DNA from: Actinomycetes bacterium
GTDB taxonomy: Bacteria > Actinomycetota > Thermoleophilia > Gaiellales > F1-60-MAGs149
Reading direction: 5' to 3'
NCBI GenBank assembly: GCA_025360225.1
Contig: JANYCN010000018.1
Span: 30,504-94,503 of the forward strand
Length of the DNA stretch: 64,000 bases
Shown in pieces: positions 12,242 through 40,900 of the stretch. The position numbers and the translations under genes were made by a program. The notes under the pieces were generated by a model. The model ran no database searches and had not been told where the DNA came from. It saw only the letters and a program-made list of their open reading frames with translations. How positions within the stretch are numbered: the first letter of the stretch is position 1; the number at the start of each line of letters is the position of its first letter.

Positions 12242-13935
12242 AGCACCCCCTTCGTGGAGGGAGCCGCGCCGGCCCGTCGCGGGTCGGCGGCGCAGGCGAT
12301 CCGCAGAGCGCGGGCGAGCGCCTTGAACGCCGCCTCGACGATGTGGTGGTCATCGTCGCCGGTCGCGCTGAGGTGGAGGTTGACGCGAGCGGCACGCGCG
12401 AGCGAGTCGAGCATGTGCGGCCACAGGCTGGCCGCGATCCCGCCGACGGGCTGCCCCGAGAGCGCGAGCTTGATCACCGAGACGCCGCGTCCACCGAGGT
12501 CGATGACGCACGTTGCGAGCGCCTCGTCGAGCGGTGCGGAGGCGTCGGCGAAGCGGGCGATTCCCTGCCGCGCGCCGAGGGCTCGGTCGAGGGCCTGACC
12601 GAGCGCGATGCCGACGTCCTCGGTCGTGTGGTGCTCGTCGACGTGGAGGTCGCCGGTGACCTGCAGGTCGAGATCGATGCAACCGTGAAAGGCAAGGGCG
12701 TGGAGCATGTGGTCGAGGAAGCCAAGGCCCGTGTCGATCGTGCACGTCCCGCTGCCGTCGATCACGAGCCTCGTTGCGATCGTCGTCTCCCGTGTCGCGC
12801 GTCGCACCGTTCCGCGGCGTCCCCAGAGGCGGTCGTGCTCGACGGGCACGGGCTCGGGGGCCGGCGGTGTTCCGCCGGTGAGGGCGGCGATCGCGGCCAC
12901 CAGATCGTCGTTCTCCGGCGGCGTCTGCACCGTGACGCGGATCACATTGGCAAGGAGCGGCTCGTGCCCGAAGGTGCGCACCACGAGTCCCTCGTCTGCG
13001 AGCGTCTGCCAGGCATCGTCAGACGAGGCAACGGTGCGAACGGTGACGAATGGCCCGGCCTCTGCGAGCACCTCAGCCCCCGCGGCAGCCAGCGCCCGCC
13101 GAAGACGACCGCGTTCGGCAACGTACGCGACGCAGTCGGCGCGCATCTCCTCGACCTCGCTAAGGGCGAGCTCGACGGCGGTCGCGGCCTGAAGCGAGAG
13201 CGACCCTGGCGGTCGGAGCGCGTCGAGCGCACCGGCGATCGCCGGGTTGGCAAGCGCGTAGCCGACGCGTAGCGACGCGAGCGCCCAGCCTTTGGAGAAC
13301 GTCCGGCAGACGATCAGGTTGTCGTGCTCGGCGATCAGCGGAGCGTGGTCGATGCCGCCGAACTCGAGATAGGCCTGGTCGACGACGACGAGCCCTGGGC
13401 ACGCAGCACAGAGCTCCGCGACGGTCGCCGCTGGCACATCCTCGCCGGTAGGGTTGTTCGGCGAGCACAGCCAGATCATTCGGGCGCCCGGGGCTCGCTC
13501 GAGGAGCCCTTCAAGATCGAGCGCGAGACCGTCTCTTGGCGGCAGCGCAACGAGCGTGCCGCCGGCCATGGCCGTCGCGACGGAGTACATCTGGTAGGTC
13601 GGCTTGCAAACAAGGGCAGTGTCGCCGCGGCCCATCGCGAGCGTCCCGGCGAGCAACAGGACCTCGTCGCAGCCGGCCCCTGGCACGATCTGCGTCCAAG
13701 GCAGCCCGACGTACCGCCCGATCGCCTCGCGCAGCGGCCGATACGTCGCCTCCGGGTACGCGCACGCCTCGAGCCTCGCGACCTCGGCGGCGATGCGCGG
13801 CCAGGCGGCGGGGGAGAGCGGCAGCGTGTTCATGTCGAACCTGCTGACAGGGCCAGCCGGCACGTTGTCCTGCCAGCGGTACGGGGCCGGGCGGGCCAGC
13901 TCGGGCCGGACATGGGTGAGAAGCTGTTCGGTCAC
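12238..13935 (-). CDS. Fused histidinol-phosphate aminotransferase (HisC) + imidazoleglycerol-phosphate dehydratase (HisB), 565 aa
   Basis: N-half: CSPNNPTG, VDQAYLEF, RTFSKGWALASLRVGY; C-half: TRETTI, GFLDHML, DEHHTTED, PLDEAL, DDHHIVEAAFKA; one open frame; GTG start overlaps hisG stop (GTGA). Confidence 0.93.
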   Translation of the reverse strand: MTEQLLTHVRPELARPAPYRWQDNVPAGPVSRFDMNTLPLSPAAWPRIAAEVARLEACAYPEATYRPLREAIGRYVGLPWTQIVPGAGCDEVLLLAGTLAMGRGDTALVCKPTYQMYSVATAMAGGTLVALPPRDGLALDLEGLLERAPGARMIWLCSPNNPTGEDVPAATVAELCAACPGLVVVDQAYLEFGGIDHAPLIAEHDNLIVCRTFSKGWALASLRVGYALANPAIAGALDALRPPGSLSLQAATAVELALSEVEEMRADCVAYVAERGRLRRALAAAGAEVLAEAGPFVTVRTVASSDDAWQTLADEGLVVRTFGHEPLLANVIRVTVQTPPENDDLVAAIAALTGGTPPAPEPVPVEHDRLWGRRGTVRRATRETTIATRLVIDGSGTCTIDTGLGFLDHMLHALAFHGCIDLDLQVTGDLHVDEHHTTEDVGIALGQALDRALGARQGIARFADASAPLDEALATCVIDLGGRGVSVIKLALSGQPVGGIAASLWPHMLDSLARAARVNLHLSATGDDDHHIVEAAFKALARALRIACAADPRRAGAAPSTKGVL

Positions 13936-22567: not shown

Positions 22568-25144
22568 CTACGGCACGACGACGCGCAGCGCCCGGCTCGG
22601 CGTGCCCGCGCCAAGGGTGCCCAGCGCGACGACGCGGATCGTCCATGTTCCCGGGACGAGTCGGAGCGTGACGATCCCGCGTGTCGTCCGCCGGACGACA
22701 CGGCGTCGCCCGGCGCTGGCGATGATGCGGTAGGCCGTCGTCCGTGCCGCGGCGATGTTGGCGGGCGCGGCGAACGTGACCGAGACGACGACGCCGCGCC
22801 GGCTGGCGCGGAGGCGTTGGGGAGCGGAGGCGCGCGCGAGCGTGATCGCGGTGCCTGCGTCGAGCGGCGTCGACAGCCCGGCCGCGTTGCGCGCGACCAC
22901 CTGGACGGCGTAGCCCGTGCCGGCGCGGAGTCCGTCGACGATCGCCGTCGTCCGACCAACGACGTGAACGGTGCGGCCGGGCCGGACGGTGACGTCGTAC
23001 CCGGTGACGGGTGAGCCGTTGTCGGAGAAGGGCCGGCCCCACGAGACGACGAGCGCGTGCTCGCGGACGCCGATCGCCGGCGCGGTTGGGGGCGTCGGGA
23101 CGTCGATCGGGGTCGCCGAGCCGGCGTCGAGCCACGGGGACGTCCCGGCGTCATCGACGGCGCGCACCCGGACGGCGTAGGTCTGGCCGTTCGTGAGGCC
23201 CGGGAAGGTGACGGAGGTGGTCGTCGTCGTCCGGGTGACGTCGCCTGGCTCGATGGCCACCTCGTAGGTGGGACGCGAGCCGTCCGCCGGTGAGCGCAGC
23301 ACCTGCACGTGCATCGCGGTCGGGCCGATCGAGAGGGTCGCGCCGGACGGGGCCGCTGGTACCCCGTAGGGCGTCACGGCGGGGAGGGCGACGGGCGCGG
23401 TCTGTCCCCACGCGCTCGTCGCGACGATCGTGGGGGTGTACGCGACGCCTGGGGTGAGCCCGGTGAAGGTCGTCGAGACGCCCTCGGCGTAGAACAGGTA
23501 GTCGAGGTGCTGCGTCGCGCCGCCCGGCGTGATCGTCACGTCGAGGCCGTAGGGTGCGCCGGCGAGCGTGCCGGGGATGCGGGCGACGATGTTCAGCCCG
23601 AACCCGATCGGGGCCACGGTAGCCGTTGGCCCGGGCGGGACGCCGTAGGGCGCGGCAGGCGGGCTGCTCACGAGGCTTGGGCGGGACGAGCCGACACCGT
23701 TCCGGGCAACGATCGTGAACGTGTAGGCAACGCCGTTGCGGAGCCCGTCAACGGTCACCGGGCTCGTGGAGCCGGTCACGGACCGTCCGCCCGGCATGGC
23801 GATGACGTCGTAGCCGAGAATCGGCGACCCGCCGTCGTCGGGTGTCGCGAAGCCGACGGTGACGCCGTCGAGGGACGGCGTCACCGACGGCACGCCCGGG
23901 ATCGGGGCCGGGACGCCGCCGACCACGACGTTCGCGACGGCCGGGGGCGAGGTGCCGAGCGGGTCCTCCGTCGTGACCGCGATCCGGTAGGTCGTGCCGT
24001 CCGTGAGCCCGGTAAGCACGACCGGACTGCGGCCGGTGAGGACGTCGGGTTGGCCATCGACGTGCACGCGGTAGATGGTCGCCATGCCGCTCTCCGGCTG
24101 CGGCATGAACGTCACGACCGCGCCGCCGCCCTCGGGCGCGACGCCGAGGGCGGTCGGTGGGTCGGGTGGGCGGGTGTGGAGGATGCAGCCGTTACCGCGG
24201 TTCGACCACTCGCTCTGAAGCAGGTAGCGGCCGGCACCGATACGCTGGTTGTAGGCGGTCGCCGGCGTCCCGTCTCGCGTGCCGAGCAAGCTTCCGAACT
24301 TCCACGCGCAGAGGTCGCCGACCTCCATGTTGTAGAGGTTGGTCGTCCACCACCCGTCAAGGTAGGGGTCGGTCTCGGCCTCGATCAGCTCGTGGCTGAT
24401 CACCCCGATCGCCGCGTCCTCGTTCGATACCGTCGGTAGCGTCGGTGTCGAGGAAGCGCGGCACCTCGCGCCCGGAAACCCGATCACGGCGTAGACCGTC
24501 CGGTTGCTCGTGAAGTAGTGGTATCCACAGAAGCCGTTGTTCGTGCAGAGGCTCGGCCCGTCGGTGACCTCGCAGGCCTCGAAACCGGGTGGCAGGAGGA
24601 GGACGACGAGCGTGGACCCGGCGACGGGCCAGCGCCGGGCAGCGACGAGGTTGGTCACGTGCGTGATGCCGTCGCCGACGTAGAAGCAGAGCTGCGGCGA
24701 GGGGACGGCATCACAGCCGACCGGGACCGGTGTGTGGTCGACGATCGAGCCGGCGAACCGCGTCGTCTGACCGGCGACGTCCCCGGCCAGGTCGGTGTAC
24801 TCGCGCGCCACGGCGAACACGTTCTCGGCGTCGTCGGTCGCGCTCGCGACGTCCGATAGGAAGCCGTCGATCGCAGAGCGGTACGTCGATGGGAAGGCGG
24901 CGCTGCCGGGTGGCGACCAGTAGACGACGTGGACGGAGATCGTCGCCATCACCGCGCCGCCGTGGTACCGGACTGGGCCACCACCGGTGGTGGCTGCGGC
25001 GTGGATGCGGTTTGCAGAGCTTCGCGCACCCTGGATGATCGGGAGCACGTGCGGGTGAGGCTGCGTCGTCGAGGCGCTCGCCTCGCCTGCTCCCGCGAGG
25101 ACGGCTGCCAGGAAACCCGCCGCTGCCAGCATCCGTCGCTTCAC
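22568..25144 (-). CDS. Secreted protein: PHI-1/EXORDIUM-like N-terminal domain plus several fibronectin type III repeats
   Basis: Signal peptide; YHGGAVM..VHVVYW, FCGYH, HELIEAETDP, EVGDLC, YLLQSEWSN; FN3 motifs DGGSPILGY..GLRNG.AYTF...ARN..G.S. Confidence 0.8.
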   Translation of the reverse strand: MKRRMLAAAGFLAAVLAGAGEASASTTQPHPHVLPIIQGARSSANRIHAAATTGGGPVRYHGGAVMATISVHVVYWSPPGSAAFPSTYRSAIDGFLSDVASATDDAENVFAVAREYTDLAGDVAGQTTRFAGSIVDHTPVPVGCDAVPSPQLCFYVGDGITHVTNLVAARRWPVAGSTLVVLLLPPGFEACEVTDGPSLCTNNGFCGYHYFTSNRTVYAVIGFPGARCRASSTPTLPTVSNEDAAIGVISHELIEAETDPYLDGWWTTNLYNMEVGDLCAWKFGSLLGTRDGTPATAYNQRIGAGRYLLQSEWSNRGNGCILHTRPPDPPTALGVAPEGGGAVVTFMPQPESGMATIYRVHVDGQPDVLTGRSPVVLTGLTDGTTYRIAVTTEDPLGTSPPAVANVVVGGVPAPIPGVPSVTPSLDGVTVGFATPDDGGSPILGYDVIAMPGGRSVTGSTSPVTVDGLRNGVAYTFTIVARNGVGSSRPSLVSSPPAAPYGVPPGPTATVAPIGFGLNIVARIPGTLAGAPYGLDVTITPGGATQHLDYLFYAEGVSTTFTGLTPGVAYTPTIVATSAWGQTAPVALPAVTPYGVPAAPSGATLSIGPTAMHVQVLRSPADGSRPTYEVAIEPGDVTRTTTTTSVTFPGLTNGQTYAVRVRAVDDAGTSPWLDAGSATPIDVPTPPTAPAIGVREHALVVSWGRPFSDNGSPVTGYDVTVRPGRTVHVVGRTTAIVDGLRAGTGYAVQVVARNAAGLSTPLDAGTAITLARASAPQRLRASRRGVVVSVTFAAPANIAAARTTAYRIIASAGRRRVVRRTTRGIVTLRLVPGTWTIRVVALGTLGAGTPSRALRVVVP

Positions 25145-25173
25145 GTAGCGATCGTACCAGCGTGCCGGCCATG

Positions 25174-25198
25174 ATCAATTCCGACAATTGATGACAAT
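25174..25198. promoter_or_regulatory. AT-rich inverted/direct repeat in the divergent promoter region of the LamG-Rhs operon
   Basis: atcaatt-ccgac-aattgat (25174-25192); gacaat repeated at 25183 and 25193 (10-bp period). Confidence 0.45.
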
Positions 25199-25272
25199 CA
25201 CTAGACATGGCCGGCCAGACATCGTACGGTGACCGACGTTCGGCAGCGACGACACGAGGGGTGGGGTTTTCG

Positions 25273-28138
25273 ATGGGCGTTCGAGGAGCAGCGGGTGTTC
25301 TGGTGCTCTCGGCTGTGGTCACGGCGACCGCCGCGTCTCTCACGGGCATGGGGGGGGGGATCGGGGCGGGCGGTGGCAGCGACGGCGCCCCCGCCGGTGG
25401 CGATGAGCGCTCCGACGGAGCAGCTCGCGGCGGCGCTGGCGCGCTCGCAGGGGACGCCGGTTGAGGTGTCGTCGAGGACGACCCCGACCGAGCAGACCCT
25501 TGCGAACCCGGATGGCTCGTTCACGCTGAGCATCTCGTCGGCGCCGGTCCGCGCGATGCGCGCAGGCGCGTGGGTTGCGGTTGACCCCACGCTCTCCGTC
25601 TCGGCCGACGGGCGGGTGCGGCCCTACGCCTCGGCGATCGATGTCTCGTTCTCGAACGGCGGCAGGGGACCGGCCGTGATCGTGACCGCGGAAGGCGCGA
25701 CCGTCGCCTGGTCGTGGCCGACGGCGCTCCCGGTACCGACCATCAGCAGCGACCGCGTGACCTACGCGAGCGTGTACCCCGGCGTCGACCTCGTGCTCCG
25801 CGCGACGTCGTCGTCGTTCGCGGACGTCCTCGTCGTCCACTCGGCGCAGGCGGCAACGAGCGTGGCCGGGAAGCCGATCACGCTTGCGATGGCGATTACG
25901 GGTGGCACCGTCTCCGCCGACGGTGGTGGCGGCTTCAAGGTCGTGAACGCCCTCGGCGGCGTGGCGCTCCGTGGCGACGCGCCGGCGGAGTGGGACTCGC
26001 GTGGCGCAACGGGCACGTCTGGCCCGGCCGCGCAGGCCTCCGTGGCGGGGCCGTCGGCGACGGTCACGGAACCCGGCGGAGGGCCGGTTGACCGCGTCGT
26101 CGCGCCGCTCGGCTCCGATCGCTTCGTGGGGCTCTCGGCATCCGTGACGGGCTCGTCGCTGGTGGTCACCGCTGCCTCCTCGCTGTTCAGCGATCCGGCT
26201 ACCGTCTACCCGGTGTACGTCGACCCCTCGACCAGCCTCAAGACCGGTAGCTGGGCGATGGCCGACCAGTACTTCCCGACCGCGAAATACTGGAACTGGT
26301 CCGATGCGGGGACGCCGGGCGGCCAGGGCGTCGGGCACTACGCCGACACGACGCAGTACCCGACGGTCGAGAGCAGGCGACTGTACTTCAGCTTCCCGAC
26401 CTCGACGCTGTCGAAGAAGGTGATCACGTCTGCCTCGTTCACGGCGACCGAGGTGTGGGCGTGGTCGTGCACGGCGGCCGCGGTGAACCTGTACGAGTCG
26501 CCGGCCGTCACCTCCGCGTTGACGTGGAACACGAGGCCGGCCTGGGGGAAGCTCGTCTCGACCAAGACCGTTGCGCACGGGTATCCCGGCTGCACGACGT
26601 CGTCGACGGTCTCGTCGTCCCCAACTCTCGTCTCGTTCGACGCGAAGGCGGTCGCAGTCGACGCGGCCGCGAAGGGGTGGGGCACGACCTGGGTCGGCCT
26701 CGGTGCCTCCGAGACGACGAACTCCTGGAAGCGATTCAAGCACGACGCGACGCTCGTCGTCGTCTACCGCTCCGTCCCGAACGTGCCGACGATCACGAAC
26801 CCGACATGCGGAGCTTCGCCGGGGCCCACGCACGCGCCGAGCGTGATCTTCAAAGCCAAGAATGTGGTGAGCCCGGATAAGGTCGCCGTGAAGGTGACGT
26901 TCGATGTAGCCCGAGCCGGGGGGACCGCGATTGCAAACCTTTCGACCCAACCCGTGACCGTGACCCCGACCACGGAACAACAGGTTGGGCCGATCACGCT
27001 GGTGGGCGGAACCTACACGATGGACGCCTACACCACTGACATGTCGGTGAAGCTCCTTCCATTGAGTAGTGCAAAGACACCAGTCTGCTACTTCCAGGTC
27101 GATGCGTCCACACCACCGTCCCCGCAGGTGTACCTCCCGGCAACCGGGCCATCTGGAGCGCCGGTTCCGGCCACGGTGGTGCTACCGGCCGGCACGACCA
27201 GGTATGCCTGGACGATCAACCGAGCGGGTGCGGCACCGGGAACTGGATCCTTCGTCACTGGTGCCGGAACGCTCTCCTTGCCCGTCACGTTCCCGACATC
27301 GGGGAACGAGACGCTGTACGTGTGGAGCATGAACGGGGTCGGAACCGTCTCCACCGATCCGGGGTCCGCGGGGATCACGATCAGCGGCACACCGGCCCTG
27401 GCGCGGTGGGGCCTCGACGATTCGTTGCCGGGAGGCGCGGGGCCCGCGGACGAGGCCTCGGCGTGCCCGGCGAACGTCCCGCTTCGATCGGGCCTTCTGT
27501 CGGGCGGGGTGTCGTCGGTCGGCGGGCGCTGGATCGCGTCTGACCCGTCTGACCTGGCGTTGCAGTTCGCGGGCACGGCGGCCGACACGCTGGTGTCGGG
27601 GGCGATCGCGATGCCCGGCCCCGATGATGTCTCCGCCACGGCCTGGGTAGCCCCGAACGGGTTGGCCGGGACGGCGTTCGCGCTCGGCGCCCCGGCTGGC
27701 GGGACGCCGCTCGTCTCGGTATCGCTGACACCCGACCCGGCTGACGCGACCGTCTCGCGATGGACGGCGACGCTCGGCGGGGTCTCCGTGCAGGTGCCGA
27801 CGATCGACGTCGTCGCGGGCGACTGGTACCACGTCACGGCCGGGTACTCGAGGAGCGATGGGCTGTTGACGCTCTCCGTCCTCCAGGTCGACGGGCTGCT
27901 GATCTTCCCCGACTCGGTGTCCGCCGTGATCGTGGCACCCGTCGTGGTACCAGCCCAGCTCGAGGCGACCGTGGGCGGCGTGCACGTGGCCACCGGTTTC
28001 GATCAGGGCTTCGTAGGGACGGTGGACGAGCTGCTCGTGTATGGCGGCTCGCTCAACGCCCAGCAGGTGACCTATCTGGATACAGCAGCAAGACCGTACG
28101 GCACCAATGATCCCTGCTCGCAGGCACCGCAGGGATGA
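25273..28138 (+). CDS. Secreted DNRLRE-domain / LamG-like jellyroll protein (Rhs partner), frameshifted at a G10 tract as given
   Basis: ATG 25273 (G-rich RBS) encodes signal-like MGVRGAAGVLVLSAVVTATAASLTG that stops at 25464; deleting one G from 25350-25359 joins it to the long frame (ANPDGSFT, YPVYVDP, RLYFSF..ITSASF...WAWSC..TWNTRP, LamG WYHVTAGY..FVGTVDELLVY). Confidence 0.8.
25350..25359 (+). repeat. G10 homopolymer tract
   Basis: cat-gggggggggg-atc; the longest homopolymer I noticed in the window. Confidence 0.9.
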
Positions 28139-31100
28139 AGAGGCCAGCCCTCATGCGGGTCGGCGTCGCGATGGTTCTCCCGGTCGTCCTCGCGACGGCC
28201 GCCGCGGCGACGCCGTCGGCCGCCGCGCATACGCCAACCGTCGCGCGGCCGGCGGTCGCCGCTACCGCGGCGTCATCGTTGCCTCCGGTCGTGCGGGCGG
28301 TGCGTCCGACGACCCACCCGTTCCACCTCGTGCCGCGGGCACCGCGCTACCGGGTGGCTGCGGCTGCAGCTGTGACTCGGTCGCCGATCTCGGTCAAGGT
28401 CGTGTCGGCCGGGCATGCGCGAGCATCCTCGGTCCGCGTGCGGGTCTCGGTGTCCGGAGCGGCTGTCGCCCGGGCTCGCGGAGCGGGGATCGTCTGGTCG
28501 CTACGTCCCACCGTCCGGGCGAGCATCCGCGTTACCCTCGACCTCGCGACGATCGCTCCACGGTTCGGTGGAGGTTGGGGCCCGCGCGCGCGACTCGTCG
28601 CGCTCGTGCCGTGCGCCGGGGCGGCGTTGCGGCGTGATCCCGGGTGTCGCCTCGAGGTGCCGGTCGCGACCAGGAACGTTCGCGGACGCGTGCTCGTCGC
28701 CACGGTCGCTGCCGGGCCATCATCGGCGGTCACGCTGGCGGCGGTCTCCTCCGCGACGGGAAGCGCGGGGTCGTACGCGGCGACGGCGATGGTGCCGTCC
28801 TCGTCCTGGCAGGCCGGTGGTCAGAGCGGCGACTTCCGCTGGTCGTATCCGATTCAGGCTCCGCCGGTGGCGGGCGGTCTCGGCCCGACGCTCGCGATCG
28901 ACTACGCCTCGGGCAGCGTCGACGGCCGCGTCGCGTCCACGAACGTGCAGCCGTCCTGGCTCGGACAGGGGTTCGGGCTCGAGCCCGGCTACATCGAGCG
29001 GCGCTACGTGTCCTGCGCCGACGACCTCGCGTCGGGGAACAACGCCACCCACGCGACGCCCGACCTCTGCTGGAGGTCGATGAACGCGTCGATCTCGCTC
29101 GGCACGCACTCCGGCATCCTCGTCCCGACGACGACCGCGAACGTGTACCGGCTACAGGAGGACGACGGCTCGCGGATCACGCACGTCGGAACCGGCCCGA
29201 CCGGTGGTGCCGCGGAGTCCTGGAAGCTCGAGACGACCGACGGCACCGTGTACACGTTCGGGCTCGGGAAGGATGCGCTGGGGAACGCGACCGGTAGCGC
29301 CTGGTCGGTGCCGGTGTTCGGGAACCAGGCGGGTGAGCCATGCTACAAGGCCGCGAACTTCGCCGGCTCGTCCTGCTCGCTAGGGTGGCGCTGGAACCTC
29401 GACTCGGTCGTCGATCGCCACGGGAACGCGATCGGGTACGCCTACGCGCCGGAGACGAACGAGTACGGCGCGAACCTGAACACGTCGATCGTGTCCTACA
29501 CCCGGGGCGGCGTCCTGACGCAGATCAGCTACGGCCAGCGTGTCGGCGCGCCTGCGCTGGGCGCCTCGGCGCGGGTGGTATTCACGACCGCGCAGCGCTG
29601 CATCCCGTCTGGCACGATCACGTGCGCTGCGACGCAGCTGACGGCGACGACGGCGAGCTCGTGGCCGGACGTGCCGTTTGACCAGATCTGCACGGCGGCG
29701 CTCGGCGCGGTGCCGGCCGGCAAGGGGTGTCCGAACGTGCAGGCGCCGGCGTTCTTCACGCGCCTCATGCTCACCGGGATTGCCACGCAGGTGGCGCTCA
29801 CCGCGAACGTGTTCACGGCAGTCGACTCGTGGGCGTTCGCGCACACGTGGCTGAACCCGGGGGATACGACGAGCGCGGTGCTGTGGCTCGACTCGATCAC
29901 GCGCACCGGCCTCGACGGCGGGTCGGTTGCCGTGCCGCCCGTGAAGCTGATCGCGTCGACGCAGATGCCAAACCGCGTCGACTCGGTGACGGACAACGCG
30001 CCGCCGATGAACAACTTCCGGCTGATAGGGATCCAGAACAACGTCGGTGGGGCGACGTCGATCGTGTACTCGTCCCCGGTTGAGGCCGGGGCGTGCACGC
30101 CGGCGTCGAAGCCGGTGCCGGCGACGAACACCCGGCTCTGCTTCCCGGTGTACTGGTCGGCGTTCGGCAACGTCGCGCCATCGTTGAACTGGTTCTACAA
30201 GTACGTCGTGCGGCAGGTGACGGAGGACACCGGCACGATCGGCAGCACCCAGAAGGTCACCCGCTACGCGTACGTCGGAGGTGGAGCCTGGCGGTTCGAC
30301 CGGGACGATCTGGTGCCGGCGAGGTACCGCACGTGGGGCCAGTGGCGCGGGTTCGCGACGGTCGATGCTGTCGTCGGCACTCCGAGGGTCGGCCCGTTCT
30401 CGGCGTCGCGGCAGCTGTTCATGCGTGGCATGAACGGAGACTGCGTCGACGCGACCTGCGTCGCGAAGAAGAGCGTGGTCGTCACGGACTCGCGCGGCGG
30501 GTCGGTCGTCGACCAGGACCGGATGAACGGCTTCCTGCGCGAGCAGATCATGTTCGGGGCCTGGAGCGACGCGACGATGGCCGGCTCGGCCGCAACGAGC
30601 GAGGAGCTCCAGACGCCGATCCTGGGCGCCGTCACGGCAACGGACGGGACGCATAGCGCCCAGCTGCTCGAGACCGCGAGCTCGAGCAAGCGGACGTACC
30701 GCACGACGTCTGGCGGGTACCTCGAGTCGGACCTCGCCTACACGTACGACGCGTACGGGCAGCCGCTGACGATCGACGACAACGCCGGCGAGTGCACGAC
30801 CTTCACCTACGACACGAACCTCGCGGTCTGGCTGGTCGACCTCGTGACGAGCAAGGCGATCGTCGCGCGCCCCTGTGCCACGGCGCCCTCGGCGACGGTT
30901 GCCGACACGCTGAGCGCGACCCGCACGGTGTACGACTCCGCTCCCTCGTGGGCGGCGGCTCCCGGATCGGCGGTCGGCGATCCGACGCGAACGCTCGTGC
31001 TCGACGGCCCCGCCGCCGGCCCAGGCGCGTGGGTGACGAACGCGACGACGACGTTCGACGGTCTCGGCCGGCCGCTCGTGGTGACGGACGGGCTCGGGCG

Positions 31101-34100
31101 TGCGACGACGACGACGTACACGCCGGCCGTGAGCGGCCCGGCGACGCAGGTCGTCGTCGCGAACGCGCTCGGCCAGGCCACGACGACCACCCTCGACCCG
31201 CTGCGGGGCCTGACGCTCGCGACGGTCGACCCGAACGGACGGCGCATCGACGAGGCCTACGACGGCCTCGGGCGGCTCACGTCCGTGTGGCTCGCGAACA
31301 GGGCGAAGGCAACGCAGACCCCGAACGTCCGCTACGCGTACACGCTGTCGGCAACCGCCGGCAGCGTCGTCGAGTCGGACGAGCTGCGCAACAACGGCAC
31401 CTACACGGCGACGTTCACCTACTACGACGGCCTGATGCGCGAGACCGAGACGCAGTCGCCGCTGCTTGACGGCACCGCCGGGCGCGTCGTCTACCAGACG
31501 CTGTATGACGGTCGCGGGCTGAAGGCGACCGTCACCGGCCCGGTCGGCCTGACCGGCGCGCCCGCCGCGACCGGCACGGTGATCGCGGCCGACAACCAGG
31601 TGATGGACCGCGTCGACACGAGCTACGACGTCTCCGGGCGCGTGACGTCCGTCACGGAGCGCCCCGGGACGCCCGGCGGCTGGCGGTACCTGACGACCTC
31701 CACGACCTACGACGGCGACACCGTGACGGTCACGCCGCCGACCGGTGGCACGATCACACGAACGACGGTCGATGCGCGGGGCAACACGATCTCGTCGGCC
31801 CAGTACGACGGCACGGCGTTCCTGACGAGCACGTACGCGTACCGGCCGGACGGGCTGATGACGTCGATGACGGATCCCGCCGGCAAGTCCTGGACGCGCT
31901 CCTACGACCTTCGTGGCCGGCTCGTCTCGACGGCCGATCCGGACGCCGGGACGACCCGGTTCACCTACGACGTGGCGGGCCAGCAGCTCACGCGGACGGA
32001 TGCCCGTGGCGTGCAGATCACGACGAGCTACGACGGTCTTGGCCGCCGCACCGGCGAGCAGCGCACCGACGGCCCCACGCCGGTGCCGCTGACGCAGTTC
32101 ACCTACGACGCCGCCACGGGCGGCATCGGGCAGCTCGCGACTGAGACGCGCACGGTGAACGGGAACGACTACACGCAGGCGATCACGGCCTACGACCCGC
32201 GCTACAACGTGCTGACCTCACAGACCACGATCCCGGCGTCCGAGGGCCTGCTCGCCGGGACGTTCCCGGGGAAGTCGGCCTACAACGTCGACGGACAACT
32301 CCAGTCGTACATCCCGCCGAACGTCCCCGGCCTCGCCGCCGTCGGCTACTCGTACGGCTACGACACGCTCGGGCAGCTTAAGTCCATGGCCACTGGCGTG
32401 GGCGCAATTGTGCCCGGTGTGCTGCACGACTACCTCGGCGACGTGTACCAGATGACGACGGGTGCGAGTCTCGGGCAGGGCGTGACGTATAACTGGAACT
32501 ACGAGACCGGCACGAACCGGCTCGTCGGCCGCATCATCCAACGCCAGTCGCAGCCTGGCTACACGATGAACCTGAGCTACACGTACGACGACGCCGGCAA
32601 CGTCACGAGCAGCAACGACGCTCCGAGCGGCGTCACGGACGGGCCGACCGGTGAGACGCAGTGCTACACGTACGACGGGCTGCGTCGCCTGACGGCGGCG
32701 TGGACGCCGGCCGCGGCGAGCTGTGCGGCGGCGCCGGCGAGCGCTGCCGCCCTCGGTGGCCCTGCCCCCTACTGGCGCACGTATGGCTACAACAATGAGG
32801 GGTCGCGGACCAGCGAGACGGATAACGCCGGCGTCACGCCGACCACGACGTCGTACCAGTACGCGGCCGGCGCCCCCCACGAGCTCGCCTCCACGACGAC
32901 GGGCGGCCGCACGACCGGCTACGGGTTCGACGCTGCCGGCAACCGGACGACGGTCACGCCGCCTGTTGGCCAGGCGACGACGACGACGTTCGACGAGTTC
33001 GGGAAGGTGTCGTCCGTCACGAGCGCCGCCGGCACCGTCACCTACATCCACGACGCCGAGGGGCGCCTTCTGCTGACGAAGGTCGGCACGGACGAGACGC
33101 TGTCATTGCCGGACGGTACCGAGGATCGCGTCACGAACGCCGTGGCGTCATCGACGCGGTCGATCTCGTTCCTCGGCAACGCGGTGACGGTTCAAACCCC
33201 CGGCGGGTTCGTGAACATCGTTCCCGACCCGCACAACACGGGCGAGCTGGCGATCGACGACCACACCGACGCGATCTCGATCCGGCGCAGCCTGCCGTTC
33301 GGCGGGCTGCGCACGACGCCAACCTCGTGGCCCGACCAGCACGGCTTCGTGGGTGGGCTAGCCGACCCGGTCGCCGTGACCGGAACCGTCCACGTCGGCG
33401 CGCGCGACTACGACTCGGGCACGGGCCAGTTCATCAGCCCCGACCCGGTGCTCGACGCCGGGAACCCGTCCGGCTGGAACCCGTACGCATACGGCGGCTC
33501 GAACCCGGTCACGAACAGCGACCCGAGCGGGCTGATGCTGGCGTCGCCGGACGGAGGTGGTGGTGGGGGTCTCACCGCTACCGCGCCGCGACCGGCTCCG
33601 GCGAAGCCGAGGATGATCGTGTACGGCCGGTGGGCTGCGATCTATCGCTCCACGAGCGGCACGAACAAGCACTCCGACTCCGGCGGCAGCTTCTTCTCGA
33701 ACATCGGGAACGCGTTCGCCGGGATGGGAGCCGGCGTCGCCGACCAGGTCGGCCTCGGCGACGTCTACACCGGCGCGATGAAGAGCGCCGGCGTCGACAC
33801 GAGCAGCGGCTGGTACACCGGCGCGCGCACCGTCACGAACGTCGCGATCATCGTCGCTTCCGTCGCCGTCCCGGGCGTCGGCGCCGTCCGCGCCGGCATC
33901 CAGGCCGCGCGCCTCGCGAACGACGCACACGAGGCGCTGAACGCCGTCCGCGCGGGCGAGTCGATGCTCCCCGAGGCAGAGAGCCTCGTGCGGGATGCGG
34001 CGGAGTCGTGTAGCGCGAACAGCTTCACCGCGCGGACGCTGGTGACGATGGCGGACGGCTCGCGCGAGCCGATCAGCCGGGTGGCGGTGGGCGACCGCGT

Positions 34101-34752
34101 CCTCGCGTCCGACCCGGAGACGGGCCGCACTGAGGGGCGTGCCGTGACGGCGACGATCGTCCACGGCGGCGCCCACACGATGGTCGACGTCAGGCTCGCG
34201 GACGGCACCACGACCACCGCCACCGATCACCACCCGTTCTGGGACGCCACCACCACCAGCTTCGTGTACGCCGACCACCTCCACGTCGGCGACCGCCTCC
34301 TCGAGGCGAACGGCACGCTGATCCAGGTCAGCGGGCTTCGCATCTACCAGGCGGACGTGACCGCCTACAACCTCGCGATCGACGGCATCCACACGTACTA
34401 CGCCGGCGACACGCCGGTGCTGGTTCACAACACGTGTGGCCCCCTGGTGATCGGCGAGAACATAAGCCGGGTCAGACGCTTCGCCGATGAGGTGGGAGGT
34501 CACGCATACCGACCTTGGACCCGGGCATCGGAGTCTGTAGCGCTCCGTCGGAACGAGCGCATGGTGCGTGACGCGATGAGCGCAGGCCGCGACATTATCG
34601 ACATCGGTCCGGACTTCGCACGACGCGCCGCCGGGCGGGAACCCAGTTTGTTCTACAACATGGAGCGTCAGGTCACGCGCGGCTACGATCGGTACCAACG
34701 CGTTTGGGACAGATCCGGCCAAGCTGGCGGCGTTCCAGGGTTCGACCCGTGA
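28135..34752 (+). CDS. Secreted RHS/YD-repeat polymorphic toxin with pretoxin HINT domain and unrecognised C-terminal toxin, 2205 aa
   Basis: Signal peptide; SpvB-like GDFRWSYPI..P...GGLGP; YD repeats; core GARDYD..GQFISPDP..NPYAYG..NPVTNSDPSGL; HINT SFTARTLV.MADG..DHHPFW..YNLAIDGIHTYY..VLVHN; ATGA overlap with upstream gene. Confidence 0.95.
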   Translation: MKRPALMRVGVAMVLPVVLATAAAATPSAAAHTPTVARPAVAATAASSLPPVVRAVRPTTHPFHLVPRAPRYRVAAAAAVTRSPISVKVVSAGHARASSVRVRVSVSGAAVARARGAGIVWSLRPTVRASIRVTLDLATIAPRFGGGWGPRARLVALVPCAGAALRRDPGCRLEVPVATRNVRGRVLVATVAAGPSSAVTLAAVSSATGSAGSYAATAMVPSSSWQAGGQSGDFRWSYPIQAPPVAGGLGPTLAIDYASGSVDGRVASTNVQPSWLGQGFGLEPGYIERRYVSCADDLASGNNATHATPDLCWRSMNASISLGTHSGILVPTTTANVYRLQEDDGSRITHVGTGPTGGAAESWKLETTDGTVYTFGLGKDALGNATGSAWSVPVFGNQAGEPCYKAANFAGSSCSLGWRWNLDSVVDRHGNAIGYAYAPETNEYGANLNTSIVSYTRGGVLTQISYGQRVGAPALGASARVVFTTAQRCIPSGTITCAATQLTATTASSWPDVPFDQICTAALGAVPAGKGCPNVQAPAFFTRLMLTGIATQVALTANVFTAVDSWAFAHTWLNPGDTTSAVLWLDSITRTGLDGGSVAVPPVKLIASTQMPNRVDSVTDNAPPMNNFRLIGIQNNVGGATSIVYSSPVEAGACTPASKPVPATNTRLCFPVYWSAFGNVAPSLNWFYKYVVRQVTEDTGTIGSTQKVTRYAYVGGGAWRFDRDDLVPARYRTWGQWRGFATVDAVVGTPRVGPFSASRQLFMRGMNGDCVDATCVAKKSVVVTDSRGGSVVDQDRMNGFLREQIMFGAWSDATMAGSAATSEELQTPILGAVTATDGTHSAQLLETASSSKRTYRTTSGGYLESDLAYTYDAYGQPLTIDDNAGECTTFTYDTNLAVWLVDLVTSKAIVARPCATAPSATVADTLSATRTVYDSAPSWAAAPGSAVGDPTRTLVLDGPAAGPGAWVTNATTTFDGLGRPLVVTDGLGRATTTTYTPAVSGPATQVVVANALGQATTTTLDPLRGLTLATVDPNGRRIDEAYDGLGRLTSVWLANRAKATQTPNVRYAYTLSATAGSVVESDELRNNGTYTATFTYYDGLMRETETQSPLLDGTAGRVVYQTLYDGRGLKATVTGPVGLTGAPAATGTVIAADNQVMDRVDTSYDVSGRVTSVTERPGTPGGWRYLTTSTTYDGDTVTVTPPTGGTITRTTVDARGNTISSAQYDGTAFLTSTYAYRPDGLMTSMTDPAGKSWTRSYDLRGRLVSTADPDAGTTRFTYDVAGQQLTRTDARGVQITTSYDGLGRRTGEQRTDGPTPVPLTQFTYDAATGGIGQLATETRTVNGNDYTQAITAYDPRYNVLTSQTTIPASEGLLAGTFPGKSAYNVDGQLQSYIPPNVPGLAAVGYSYGYDTLGQLKSMATGVGAIVPGVLHDYLGDVYQMTTGASLGQGVTYNWNYETGTNRLVGRIIQRQSQPGYTMNLSYTYDDAGNVTSSNDAPSGVTDGPTGETQCYTYDGLRRLTAAWTPAAASCAAAPASAAALGGPAPYWRTYGYNNEGSRTSETDNAGVTPTTTSYQYAAGAPHELASTTTGGRTTGYGFDAAGNRTTVTPPVGQATTTTFDEFGKVSSVTSAAGTVTYIHDAEGRLLLTKVGTDETLSLPDGTEDRVTNAVASSTRSISFLGNAVTVQTPGGFVNIVPDPHNTGELAIDDHTDAISIRRSLPFGGLRTTPTSWPDQHGFVGGLADPVAVTGTVHVGARDYDSGTGQFISPDPVLDAGNPSGWNPYAYGGSNPVTNSDPSGLMLASPDGGGGGGLTATAPRPAPAKPRMIVYGRWAAIYRSTSGTNKHSDSGGSFFSNIGNAFAGMGAGVADQVGLGDVYTGAMKSAGVDTSSGWYTGARTVTNVAIIVASVAVPGVGAVRAGIQAARLANDAHEALNAVRAGESMLPEAESLVRDAAESCSANSFTARTLVTMADGSREPISRVAVGDRVLASDPETGRTEGRAVTATIVHGGAHTMVDVRLADGTTTTATDHHPFWDATTTSFVYADHLHVGDRLLEANGTLIQVSGLRIYQADVTAYNLAIDGIHTYYAGDTPVLVHNTCGPLVIGENISRVRRFADEVGGHAYRPWTRASESVALRRNERMVRDAMSAGRDIIDIGPDFARRAAGREPSLFYNMERQVTRGYDRYQRVWDRSGQAGGVPGFDP

Positions 34753-35189
34753 GTCTTTCTACTTCGCCCGAGCTTCTTTCGAAGTGCCTTAGTGCGTTTA
34801 GCTTCCTCGAGGACTCTGGGGCTCGTGTGGAGGTGGAGGACGGTGCTTCGCGGTCGGTGGTTGGCTACGCTCTCGACGATTCCGTCTTCGAGGTCGAGTT
34901 CGATTGGAGCGAAATGGCCGTGTTCCTCCTCGTCTGTCAGCCGGGCCCATCAGGAGGGCGCCCTGGCGGCTACTATCGGGATCGCGGCCAACTTGTCCGA
35001 GTCCATCTACTCGAGGCGCTCGGTCGGGCGGGATTGGCCGACGATGGGTTGCGATCGGCGCTCCGAGCGGTAACGCGCCGCTCTGGAGCATCGGCCATGG
35101 AAGCTCAGATTGCTCTCGCGGCAAACACTCTCGCGGAGGTGCTCGCGGCCCTCCGCGATCGGTACGGGTCGGTCTTCGACTCTGGATAG
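34749..35189 (+). CDS. Putative immunity protein for the Rhs toxin, 146 aa
   Basis: GTGA overlap with the Rhs stop, small, visibly lower GC than flanks; function inferred from position only. Confidence 0.7.
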   Translation: MSLSTSPELLSKCLSAFSFLEDSGARVEVEDGASRSVVGYALDDSVFEVEFDWSEMAVFLLVCQPGPSGGRPGGYYRDRGQLVRVHLLEALGRAGLADDGLRSALRAVTRRSGASAMEAQIALAANTLAEVLAALRDRYGSVFDSG

Positions 35190-37919: not shown

Positions 37920-40900
37920 GTGAGGATCGAGAGGCGGTACACCGCACCGGGTGGCGACCCGTACGCTGGCATCGCGTTCGCTGAGCGCACGTCGCGCATC
38001 GTCAATCCGGACGGCTCCGTCGTCTTCGAGGCCACGCTCGATGCTCCTGCCGGGTGGTCGCAGGTCGCGGTCGACATCCTCGCGCAGAAGTACTGCCGCA
38101 AGGCCGGCGTCCCGGCCGCGCTGCGCCCCGTCGACGAGGACGGCGTGCCCGAGTGGCTGCGCCGGATGGAGGTCGACGAGAAGACGCTTGCGACGCTGCC
38201 GGCCGCCGAGCGCGAGGTCGGCGAGTCCGACGCGCGCCAGGTGTTCCGCCGGCTCGCCGGGTGCTGGACGTACTGGGGGTTCACCCATGGCTACTTCGGC
38301 GAGGAGGACGCCCACGCCTTCTACGACGAGCTGCAGGCGATGCTGGCGCGCCAGGCTGCTGCGCCGAACTCGCCACAGTGGTTCAACACCGGCCTGAACT
38401 GGGCGTACGGCATCGCCGGGCCACCGCAGGGACACTGGTTCGCAGAGCCCGAGACGGGCGAGCTAAAGCGCTCCACGAGCGCGTACGAGCGCCCCGCGCC
38501 GCACGCCTGCTTCATCCAGTCCGTTGCCGACGACCTCGTGAACGAGGGCGGCATCATGGATCTCTGGGTGCGTGAGGCGCGGGTGTTCAAGTACGGGTCA
38601 GGAACCGGCTCAAACTTCTCCGACCTGCGCGGCGAGAACGAGCGGCTGTCCGGCGGTGGCAAGTCGAGCGGGCTGATGAGCTTCCTCAAGATCGGCGACC
38701 GGGCAGCCGGTGCGATCAAGTCTGGAGGCACGACCCGCCGCGCTGCGAAGATGGTCACGCTCGATCTCGATCACCCGGACATCCAGCGCTACGTGCGCTG
38801 GAAGGTGGTCGAGGAGACCAAGGTTGCTGCGCTCGTTGCCGGCTCGCGGATGCTCGCGCGGCACCTGAACGCGATCGTCGCTGCGACGGAGGAGGGCGAC
38901 GGCGACGAGCGGTTCGTCGCGCGTACCAACCCGGCGCTCGCTCAGGCGATCCGCGGAGCCCGTGCGGGCTTCGTCCCGGACGTGGCGATCAACCGCACCC
39001 TTGAGCTCGCGCGCCAGGGCGTCCGCGAGCTGCGCATCGATGAGTACGACACCGACTGGCAGGGCGAGGCTTACCAGACGGTGTCAGGCCAGAACTCGAA
39101 CAACTCGGTGCGGGTCGACACCCGGTTCATGCGCGCCGTCGAGACCGACGACGTGTGGCACCTGTTCGAGCGCACCGAGAAGGCCCGCGCCGCCGTCGAG
39201 GATCGCCCTGCCCGCCCGTGCACGACGCTCCGTGCACGCGAGCTGTGGGACGAGATCGCCGAGGCGGCGTGGCAGTGCGCCGATCCTGGTCTGCAGTTCC
39301 ACGACACGACCAACGAGTGGCACACCTGCCCGGCGGACGGCCCGATTCGCGCCTCGAACCCGTGCTCGGAGTACGTCTTCCTCGACGACACGGCGTGTAA
39401 CCTCGCATCGCTGAACCTGCTGCAGTTCGAGGGAGCGAGCGGCTTCGACGTCGAGCTGTACCGTCATGGCTGCCGGCTCTGGACGATCGTGCTCGAGGTC
39501 TCCGTCCTGATGGCGCAGTTCCCGTCGCGGGAGATCGCTGAGCGCAGCTACGCCTATCGCACGCTCGGCCTTGGCTACGCGAACATGGGTGCGATGCTGA
39601 TGCGCCGTGGCCTGCCGTACGACGGACCCGTGTCCTACGCGCTCTGCGCCACGCTCACGGCAATCATGCACTTCACGTCGCTGGCAACGAGCGCCGAGAT
39701 CGCGGGCGAGCTCGGCGCGTTCCCGGCGTACGATCGCAACGCCGAGGCGATGCTGCGGGTGGTGCGTAACCACCGCCGTGCGATCTACGCGGCGCCCGAC
39801 GTCGACTACGAGCAGCTCTCGGTGCTGCCCGTGATGGTCGACGTGACACACGCCGATCCGGCCCTGCTGGCAGCGGCGCGTGCTGACGCTGATCGAGCGC
39901 TCGAGCTCGGCGAGAAGCACGGCTACCGCAACGCCCAGGTCACGTTGATCGCCCCAACGGGCACGATCGGCCTCGTGATGGACTGTGACACGACCGGTAT
40001 CGAGCCCGACTTCGCGCTGGTGAAGTTCAAGAAGCTTGCGGGCGGCGGGTACTTCAAGATCGTCAACGCCTCCGTTCCAGCGGCGCTCGCGAACCTCGGC
40101 TACCCCGCCGAGGAGTCGGAAGCGATCGTGCAGTACTGCGTCGGCGCTGGCACGCTCGAGGGCTGCCCCCACATGTCGCCGGACAAGCTTCGCCAGCTTG
40201 GCTTCCCGAGCACCGCGATCGACGCGATCGAGTCGCAGGTACGGTCCGCGTTCGACCTTCGCTTCGCGTTCACGCGCTTCGCGATCGGCGACGACGTGTG
40301 CACCGAGCACCTCGGCATTGAGCCGGAAGACCTACGGACGCCCGGCTTCGACCTGCTCACGGCCGTCGGCTTCTCCGCCGCCGAGGTCGAGGAGGCGAAC
40401 CTCTACGTCTGCGGCACGATGACGGTGGAGGGGGCGCCGTACCTGCGCGACGAGCATCTCCCCGTGTTCGACTGTGCGAACAGGTGCGGTCGTCTAGGCA
40501 CTCGAGCGATCGCCCCGCTCGCCCACGTGGAGATGATGGCCGCCGCTCAGCCGTTCCTCTCGGGTGCGATCTCGAAGACCGTGAACCTGCCGAACACGGC
40601 GTCGATCGCCGACATCGCCGAGATCTACCGCGTCTCCTGGAAGCGCATGTTGAAGGCGATCGCGTTGTACCGCGACGGGTCGAAGCTCTCGCAGCCGCTG
40701 AACTCGTCCGCCGCGGACGCTCTTACGGTGGAGGACGTCGAACCGGTCGTCGAGAAGGTGCTCTTGCCGAGCAGCGAGGAGATCGCCGAGCGCGTCGTCG
40801 TCGAGTACCTCCGCGAGCGGCGGCGCCTGCCCGACCGTCGCGCCGGTTACACGCAGAAGTCGACGATCGGCGGGCACAAGGTGTACCTGCGCACCGGTGA

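Follow-up and report, generated by a model that had tools for sequence, protein, structure and literature searches.

The draft genome of an uncultured actinobacterium (coded G000; 3.24 Mb in 89 contigs, 70% guanine plus cytosine (GC), rated 96.9% complete and sole representative of its genus in the genome set compared) carries on contig JANYCN010000018.1 three overlapping genes, encoding a secreted protein with a C-terminal laminin G-type domain, an Rhs toxin and a candidate immunity protein. Between the predicted signal peptide of the first protein and its body lies a homopolymer of ten G residues (G10), which we examine here as a proposed slipped-strand switch. Coordinates are positions within the window, that is, the whole 64,000-nucleotide (nt) stretch of this contig that was analysed, and other contigs of the genome are coded C11, C33 and so on. 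DNA of G000 is present in four sequencing runs (X1 to X4), rock and sediment metagenomes of one study (P1). The features of the locus, with protein lengths in amino acids (aa), are as follows.

25256–25266, plus strand: G-rich Shine-Dalgarno-like stretch (GAGG at 25256–25259, GGTGGGG at 25260–25266), 6–13 nt 5′ of ATG 25273.
25273–25349, plus strand: leader start codon, n-region and hydrophobic core, MGVRGAAGVLVLSAVVTATAASLTG, then M; assigned from translation, hydropathy and the leaders of paralogues and homologues.
25336–25341, plus strand: (TC)3, read directly and compared with the paralogue repeats.
25350–25359, plus strand: G10 homopolymer, the proposed slipped-strand switch, read directly; the same G10 stands in one Logan contig each of X1 and X2.
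25273–25464, plus strand: predicted OFF-state product of 63 aa, the leader followed by an out-of-frame Gly/Ala-rich tail, ending at TGA 25462–25464.
25361–28138, plus strand: body of the secreted protein, composed of a conserved N-domain (~240 aa), a middle part that matches no family and a C-terminal Laminin_G_3; on record as 911 aa from ATG 25403.
28135–34752, plus strand: Rhs toxin gene, 2205 aa, with a hydrophobic N-terminus, RHS/YD repeats, Rhs-associated core, PT-HINT and a C-terminal tip of ~105 aa.
34749–35189, plus strand: candidate immunity gene, 146 aa from GTG 34749, overlapping the Rhs stop; no family match.

As assembled, G10 sets the leader frame off from the main frame by one base. 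From ATG 25273 the leader frame gives MGVRGAAGVLVLSAVVTATAASLTGMGGG and, out of register from there on, reaches its stop after 63 aa, and the long main frame stands open from 25229 to 28138. A single four-letter step (GGGA) at the tract yields a continuous leader and body, MGVRGAAGVLVLSAVVTATAASLTGMGGGSGRAVAATAPPPVAMSAPTEQ..., which across the junction reads ...TGMGGGSGRAVAATAPPPVAMSAPTEQ... and amounts by arithmetic to a precursor of 954 aa, so that gaining or losing units takes the gene into or out of frame. A further ATG (25348–25350) abuts the tract and TCTCTC lies just 5′ of it; this (TC)3 is possibly a remnant of the (CT)n repeat found in the leaders of four paralogues. Judged from its residues, the joined leader has the makings of a Sec-type signal peptide (a positive n-region, an uncharged core of about 10–18 residues and small residues at −3 and −1): R4 is its single arginine, its core spans approximately residues 6–23 with a Kyte-Doolittle 11-residue maximum of 2.6 at residues 6–16, and candidate cleavage sites between small residues occur at ATA/AS and AVA/AT. 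A homopolymer of ten in the 5′ coding part also belongs with the hypermutable repeats, which comprise homopolymers of at least ~8 and long dinucleotide repeats.

These readings bear out much of an earlier note on this DNA, which had described ATG 25273 behind a G-rich ribosome-binding site (the GAGG and GGTGGGG elements are indeed 5′ of it), G10 at 25350–25359, a signal-like peptide of 63 aa with its stop at 25464, and a leader that joins the large protein in one frame with one G fewer, which the joined reading matches exactly. The two overlaps that it had placed between the three genes are likewise there: ATGA at 28135–28138, where the stop of the studied gene overlaps the Rhs start, and GTGA at 34749–34752, where the Rhs stop overlaps the candidate immunity start. 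Its label for the secreted protein, DNRLRE/LamG, holds in its second half. Laminin_G_3 (PF13385) matches residues 737–889 of the 911-aa form with 32 bits (E 1.6e-07), above the Pfam gathering score of 27.6 bits, but the NCBIfam model DNRLRE_dom (NF033679, cut-off 34 bits) matched neither the whole protein nor, even at E≤1, its middle part, and the protein has no Pfam CBM96 match and no literal DNRLRE motif. DNRLRE_dom matches the paralogues on C33 (52.8 bits, with a CBM96 match as well), C56 (41.2 bits) and C88 (46.5 bits), with which the studied protein shares the N-domain alone.

Comparison with relatives sets the expectation that this protein should begin with a leader. No orthologue of the studied protein was found in the protein collection, where the best relative is 32–33% identical, and scans of metagenome and genome contigs with the protein returned no relative. 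The N-domain has four paralogues in G000 and homologues in three other genomes of the family (G003, G006 and G008), and the studied protein is the most diverged of the five N-domain proteins of G000 (25–34% identical to its paralogues). A hydrophobic leader stands directly before the conserved A..A...G.PV.V..NPDGS segment in 4/4 paralogues (alignment A1), at the equivalent place in all four genes of G003 (two), G006 (one) and G008 (one), and in seven of the eight more distant homologues fetched, the exception being P0004, which begins inside the conserved segment; homology of the body extends over 89–98% of the length in six of these eight (P0003, P0004, P0007, P0008, P0009 and P0011). ATG 25403, in turn, leaves only 16 residues before the conserved G.PVEV, none of them hydrophobic enough, and the leader must therefore come from another frame. 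Paralogue C45 has a counterpart to the Gly-rich GGGSG of the joined reading, namely GGGSGG, which includes a G7 run.

The same comparison bears on the possibility that ATG 25403 is the true start, as annotated, in which case the protein would not be exported by Sec or would take another route, and the 63-aa frame would be an unrelated small open reading frame (ORF) or noise. The 911-aa form is what stands on record, and the GC content at third codon positions (GC3) of the leader is uninformative because 77 nt are too short to tell. However, the N-terminus of that form has no hydrophobic stretch (Kyte-Doolittle maximum 1.05), every relative examined except P0004 has a hydrophobic leader before the conserved segment, and a signal-like leader that lies one base out of frame and ends in the tract is hard to explain as noise, making a start at 25403 very improbable. 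The earlier note had looked to orthologues starting at ATG 25403 without the tract to overturn its reading; no orthologues were found, and the distant homologues have a contiguous signal peptide and another start.

A hidden Markov model of the N-domain, run over the six-frame translation of G000, found exactly five genes, and each of the five carries a long frame-shifting repeat 53–167 nt upstream of its N-domain: G10 in the studied gene and (CT)9, (CT)10, (TC)11 or (TC)12 in the paralogues. In the paralogues (set L010–L013) the repeat falls in the part that codes for the signal peptide and encodes (SL)n, as follows.

C33:10435–10454: (CT)10.
C88:19498–19515: (CT)9.
C45:179744–179765: (TC)11.
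C56:33934–33957: (TC)12.

Such repeats are rare in the 3.24 Mb of G000, where CT/AG repeats number 27 at n=4, three at n=5, none at n=6–8 and five at n=9–13, and four of the five long CT/TC repeats fall in the leaders of the four paralogues. With the nine G/C runs of at least 9, this makes 14 long frame-shifting repeats in G000, five of which lie within ~850 nt of 3.24 Mb, for which a rough, post-hoc estimate of chance is ~1e-15. The position of G10 in the leader, as one of 5/5 family genes with a long leader repeat, is beyond chance. Among repeats with units of 3–9 nt, 17 in G000, no further switch candidates were found: 11 preserve the frame (units of 3, 6 and 9 nt), and the six with units of 4, 5 or 7 nt have only 3–4 copies.

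The family is caught in both states. The upstream ATG is in frame through the repeat (ON) at C33, C88 and C45, and out of frame at C56, in the G006 gene, in the studied gene and at C82, a repeat-bearing gene outside the N-domain family; at C56, C82 and G006 a signal peptide would still be supplied by a second start behind the repeat, and the studied gene is without such a start. At one paralogue the two states can be compared directly. The recorded C56 protein has 1108 aa and no leader, with a start called 96 residues inside the gene, and its 90% cluster has one other member, P0170, of 1204 aa and from a different contig of 39,448 nt, which is identical to it at all 1107 shared residues after the first. 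P0170 begins MMYGRRSPSSLSLSLSRSVSW... (in a fuller reading of its N-terminus, MMYGRRSPSSLSLSLSRSVSWRVRWSFAAALAIALGGVGVGSAVA...), corresponding to ATGATG read in frame through 11 TC units with a signal peptide. In C56 of G000 the repeat is (TC)12, ATGATG is out of frame, and the upstream frame stops after 33 residues. C56 and P0170 are therefore a natural ON/OFF pair from near-identical genomes one repeat unit apart. Exact look-ups in the protein collection found no match for the 63-aa peptide of the studied locus, nor for C33, C45, C82, the other C56 starts, C11 or the immunity ORF.

If the true tract were G9, the gene would be intact and G10 an error of sequencing or assembly. Homopolymers of ten are error-prone, the genome is a draft of 89 contigs, contigs rather than reads were compared, and several contigs end in long G/C runs (G12, C12, G17 and C8). 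Against an error, the Logan contigs of X1 and X2 (23,862 nt each, depths 14.6 and 13.7), which were built by an assembler other than that of record, show 0 differences over a 5,001-nt stretch that includes G10; as X1 and X2 may be the source of the assembly, what follows is limited to the concordance of two read sets and a second assembler. The listed contig pieces from X3 and X4 (depths 4.8 and 2.5) end at 25332 and resume at 25412, and the gap at 25333–25411 was used for no inference. Elsewhere in the assembly, 58 internal G/C runs have a length of at least 7, and in 20 of them codon periodicity is strong on both sides; the phase is kept across 14 of these 20. Among the six that change phase, C11:5232, C13:2058 and two runs on C46 lie at gene junctions or a hairpin, and C28:14692 and C87:37583 were assigned no such setting. 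The assembly shows no sign of systematic homopolymer frame errors and the design recurs in the paralogues, leaving an error at G10 only a slim chance.

Five contigs end in or near long runs: C40 (G12 at 22824–22835), C43 (C12 at 6–17), C76 (G17 at 38681–38697), C55 (C8 at 9433–9440) and C30 (G9 at 12535–12543). These ends could be assembly breaks at variable tracts or poly-G artefacts of read ends.

The tract might also be overcome without any change in DNA, by slippage of RNA polymerase or a +1 step of the ribosome on the G run that gives a constant low level of the full-length secreted protein. A +1 step inside the run does give a complete in-frame precursor, and in +1 frameshifting tRNA-Gly can re-pair perfectly on runs of identical GGG codons. 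Transcriptional slippage at homopolymers is mentioned in a discussion passage of PMC9900821. However, no stimulatory element (a slow codon, or an internal Shine-Dalgarno sequence at the right spacing) was seen, none having been searched for; the repeats of the paralogues have two-base units, for which a +1 step of the ribosome fails to recover the frame; and the difference between ON and OFF at C56 lies in the DNA. We consider recoding quite unlikely, if slightly less so than an error in the tract.

A one-base insertion in the G run could, finally, have left a fixed pseudogene in a lineage that no longer uses the gene, with no meaningful switching. Such a history would fit G10 in both X1 and X2, the unfused form as the only one on record (on two contigs) and the marked divergence of the studied protein with its missing DNRLRE_dom match. 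On the other side, the body comprises 925 codons without a stop, with a GC3 of 0.87 and an intact Laminin_G_3; the leader is still open and hydrophobic; a G10 without MutSL repair is inherently reversible; and the sister genes share the design, one of them caught both ON and OFF. A pseudogene is thus unlikely, albeit less so than recoding.

Several observations weigh against a switch at G10 itself. No length variation of the tract was seen in the assembled contigs of X1 and X2, possibly the source samples, and the difference in repeat length between close relatives was seen at the C56 paralogue, the studied tract being G10 in both runs; the comparison of alleles draws on Logan contigs, which drop rare variants, placing minority alleles beyond its reach. 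The 911-aa unfused protein is the sole member of its cluster, on two contigs, and no fused form of ~954 aa is on record. The paralogue repeats are CT dinucleotides rather than G runs, so the behaviour of G10 is argued by analogy. A scan of 24900–25500 found no sigma-70-type consensus promoter (and no terminator), and the GC3 of the leader does not favour the leader frame (0.68 vs 0.73). In addition, G000 has nine G/C runs of at least 9 (four at contig ends) and five of at least 10 (three at contig ends); since a first-order model expects 5.3 of the latter genome-wide, and 0.32 are expected if extension proceeds at the order-4 rate of 0.164 per base, G10 alone is not clearly beyond chance. The run extension ratio rises from 0.13–0.20 to 0.55–1.0 at a length of at least 9.

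Taking these observations together, we favour, with a probability of about 0.68, the reading that G10 is a simple-sequence contingency locus caught in the OFF state, within the leader of a secreted LamG-type protein whose gene comes first in an Rhs toxin operon of three genes. Because every sister gene has a repeat at this place and one of them is found ON and OFF between near-identical genomes, G10 is most likely a reversible switch and not a sequencing mistake. The earlier note had proposed a phase-variable switch in an OFF state and had held a sequencing error to be an equally live explanation. The first proposal gains from the repeats in five family genes and in G006 and from the C56/P0170 pair, length variation having been seen at C56 and not at G10; the second no longer holds, as phase variation is now much better supported by the 5/5 family repeats, the pair and G10 in both X1 and X2.

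The proposed mechanism is that of classical contingency loci. The G run would gain or lose a G by slipping at replication, and such slips would escape correction because indel repair is lacking. A tract of 9 or 12 G would place the leader from ATG 25273 in frame with the 925-codon body and yield a precursor of 954 or 955 aa for export by Sec, the run forming a Gly-rich linker in it; with 10 or 11 G, translation would stop after ~63 aa and leave the 2.8-kb body without a start and an export signal. Switching at G10 would probably be frequent and reversible. The repair background of G000 was examined alongside: NucS and a protein with MutS_V only are present, and MutS_I and MutL_C were not found in the genome (96.9% complete). 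According to passages of PMC11551767, mycobacterial NucS does not repair indels of 1–2 bp, a blindness that its authors link to homopolymer phase variation in mycobacteria.

The gene downstream has the architecture of Rhs/YD polymorphic toxins, with repeats, core, pre-toxin domain and variable tip: its 2205-aa product matches RHS_repeat (8e-20) and PT-HINT (1.6e-17) in Pfam, and YD_repeat_2x and Rhs_assc_core (8.7e-14) in NCBIfam. Neither the tip of ~105 aa after PT-HINT nor the 146-aa ORF matches a Pfam family even at E≤1. GC content dips to 0.60–0.62 at 34500–34950, across the tip and the start of the candidate immunity gene, compared with ~0.72 on either side; local dips of this kind are usual for exchangeable toxin-immunity cassettes, and the tip and 146-aa ORF look like such an exchanged cassette. 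Given the ATGA overlap, Rhs translation may depend in part on ribosomes arriving from upstream, and an OFF leader could lower the toxin through loss of coupling or polarity. Passing of the switch to the toxin by translational coupling is thus suggested by the overlap; the hydrophobic N-terminus of the Rhs protein itself, which makes independent translation possible, argues against such control.

The association between N-domain and Rhs is seen from three sides. C88 encodes the second full-length Rhs toxin of G000, a fusion of 2173 aa with N-domain, DNRLRE domain, DUF6531, RHS repeats and a phospholipase A2 tip behind its (CT)9 leader; RHS domains occur in many DNRLRE proteins of ~2000 aa from Streptomyces, Micromonospora and Frankia; and both full-length Rhs loci of G000 stand behind repeat-bearing N-domain leaders. 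The actinobacterial DNRLRE Rhs toxins resemble C88 in joining N-domain, DNRLRE and RHS in one chain, whereas the studied operon distributes N-domain and RHS over two overlapping genes and its secreted protein has LamG and no DNRLRE_dom match. Two more matches to the Rhs-associated core lie in short frames (443 aa and 638 aa) at C88:26492–27823 (L011:8492–9823) and C76:3881–4072, the former located shortly beyond the end of the C88 Rhs gene and resembling an orphan toxin tip. On the other side of the studied operon, a divergent neighbour (22568–25144, minus strand) encodes an 858-aa protein in which a Phi_1 (phosphate-induced protein 1) region is accompanied by three fibronectin type III domains.

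To place the leader repeats in a wider frame, we surveyed the family and the order. In the family, repeats of (CT)9 or longer occur in 2/37 genomes, G000 and G006. In G006, which belongs to another genus, the sole such repeat lies in the leader of the sole N-domain gene, preceded by a promoter-like TTGACA-17-GAGAGT site and a short ATG frame; the two genes of G003 and the one of G008 have contiguous leaders without repeats. Across the order, 26 of 401 genomes have (CT)9 or longer, including G000, G006 and one unpublished genome (G238), which was left out of the 24 loci examined. Only one of these 24, that of G006, adjoins an N-domain gene, and the idea that CT leader repeats are widespread in this gene family was rejected. 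By our reading of the sequence, five of the other 23 loci lie behind tRNA-like 3′ ends, the remainder being intergenic sites of various kinds. As few genomes of the family and order have such repeats, and besides G000 only G006 has one beside an N-domain gene, the leader-repeat trait is specific to a small lineage and gene family. The repeats directly after apparent tRNA 3′ ends (with T-arms of the GGTTCGAGTCC type) are CT repeats of 10–25 units in other families of the order (L033, L034, L052, L053 and L055).

Other repeats of G000 lie near the starts of genes outside the N-domain family. On C82, (CT)13 (C82:33788–33813; L014:1288–1313) immediately precedes the GAGGAG-N8-ATG of a gene whose secreted product has a PPC domain and exceeds 2437 aa, the contig ending within this gene; its upstream ATG is near a promoter-like TTGACA-18-TATCGT site, and one more unit would join the frames. 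On C53 (15613–15621, minus strand; L015), a C9 run separates the Shine-Dalgarno sequence AGGAGAGAGG from the ATG of a secreted protein of 2508 aa (DUF7743). In P0125 (2566 aa), from a near-identical record, the initiator M at the edge of C9 is replaced by L and the other 2507 residues are those of the C53 protein, so that the two differ at the tract only; given this replacement, P0125 was called from an ATG 58 codons upstream. Further G/C runs of 8–10 stand shortly before genes of exported proteins: a G8 at C11:5232–5239 precedes the GTG of a trypsin-like protease by 7 nt, another at C59:4108–4115 lies ~150 nt before the gene of a 1281-aa Ig_J-domain protein, and a C10 at C87:23740–23749 lies in a divergent intergenic region beside a small gene with a signal-like leader.

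AT-rich ATGAC/GTCAT motifs, partly palindromic, occur upstream of four of the seven repeat-leader genes: at ~25185–25205 in the window, ~10299–10315 on C33 (ATGACA-N4-TGTCAT), ~19408–19423 on C88 (ATGAC-N6-GTCAT) and ~5472–5500 in oriented coordinates on C56 (minus strand; four GTCAT). The motif may be a shared operator, but the signal is too weak for that claim: seven windows of 210 nt, each covering 200 nt upstream and 10 nt of the gene itself, gave nine hits against ~1.7 expected for a rounded 7 × 200 nt, and three of the seven windows have none.

Phase variation by simple repeats is textbook knowledge for Neisseria, Haemophilus, Helicobacter and Campylobacter and, more recently, for M. tuberculosis, where PMC11551767 cites Vargas et al. 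(2023, PMC10334774). Neisseria opa genes carry CTCTT repeats inside the leader-peptide coding region of each family copy, and each copy switches independently. The five-gene family of G000 has the same layout, with a repeat in the signal-peptide coding part of each member; unlike opa, its units are di- or mononucleotides rather than pentamers, the opa products are adhesins of human pathogens, and independent switching of copies is known there, whereas here the likeness is one of layout. In Helicobacter pylori, sabA and babB also have CT dinucleotide repeats in the 5′ region. As described in parts of PMC10564699, a CT repeat in the 5′ coding part of H. pylori oipA switches the frame of an exported protein by slipped-strand mispairing, to which the (CT)9–12 in four paralogue leaders and the one ON/OFF pair are alike. 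H. pylori is, in contrast, a Gram-negative, host-restricted pathogen that switches adhesins, and here an uncultured actinobacterium from rock or sediment metagenomes carries the repeats in a DNRLRE/LamG/Rhs family, with a G run at the studied locus.

Closer by lineage are the homopolymer switches of actinobacteria. Those of the M. tuberculosis complex, as far as portions of PMC11551767 go, resemble G10 in using G/C runs in a high-GC genome without MutSL to silence and restore genes; G000 likewise has NucS, and MutS_I and MutL_C were not found in it. Excerpts of PMC4746626 and PMC11287997 add homopolymer-tract phase variation in Cutibacterium acnes and Gardnerella. Unlike the present locus, these actinobacterial cases come from host-associated species and involve genes for metabolism, the cell envelope or adhesins. 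We know of no report of homopolymer switching in free-living environmental actinobacteria. A G homopolymer in a Gram-positive toxin-secretion locus is described in passages of PMC9900821, where the Gn tract of essC in the type VII secretion system (T7SS) of group B Streptococcus differs in length between strains and truncates the product, with regulation hypothesised; in contrast to G10, it lies in the secretion ATPase of a T7SS and not in the leader of a Sec-exported toxin partner, and its reversibility is as conjectural as that of G10. The eight homologues fetched and the three genes of G003 and G008 differ from the G000 family in having no leader repeat where the DNA was examined. A literature search found no paper reporting repeat-mediated switching of an Rhs system, its matches concerning capsule or other genes (checked: PMC4287609).

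Gene callers record the proteins of this family truncated at the 5′ end and without signal peptide (911 aa for the studied protein, 1108 aa for C56), and annotation pipelines therefore miss both the export signal and the switch. If the reading of G10 as a contingency locus holds, its target would be new, namely the partner and the N-terminal module of Rhs polymorphic toxins, and so would its setting in an environmental, uncultured actinobacterium. To our knowledge, combinatorial bet-hedging by repeats has so far been described almost only for host-adapted pathogens evading immunity. In an environmental setting, the selective agent cannot be an adaptive immune system, and competitors, phages that use surface proteins as receptors and the cost of the toxin are the likely agents instead. 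More tentatively, and at somewhat less than even odds, the five N-domain genes, including both full-length Rhs loci, together with the (CT)13 gene of C82 and perhaps the C9 gene of C53, may make up a small 'phasome' for interbacterial warfare in a free-living actinobacterium, a form of combinatorial bet-hedging in which cells lacking indel repair would each present a random selection of the toxin-delivery proteins.

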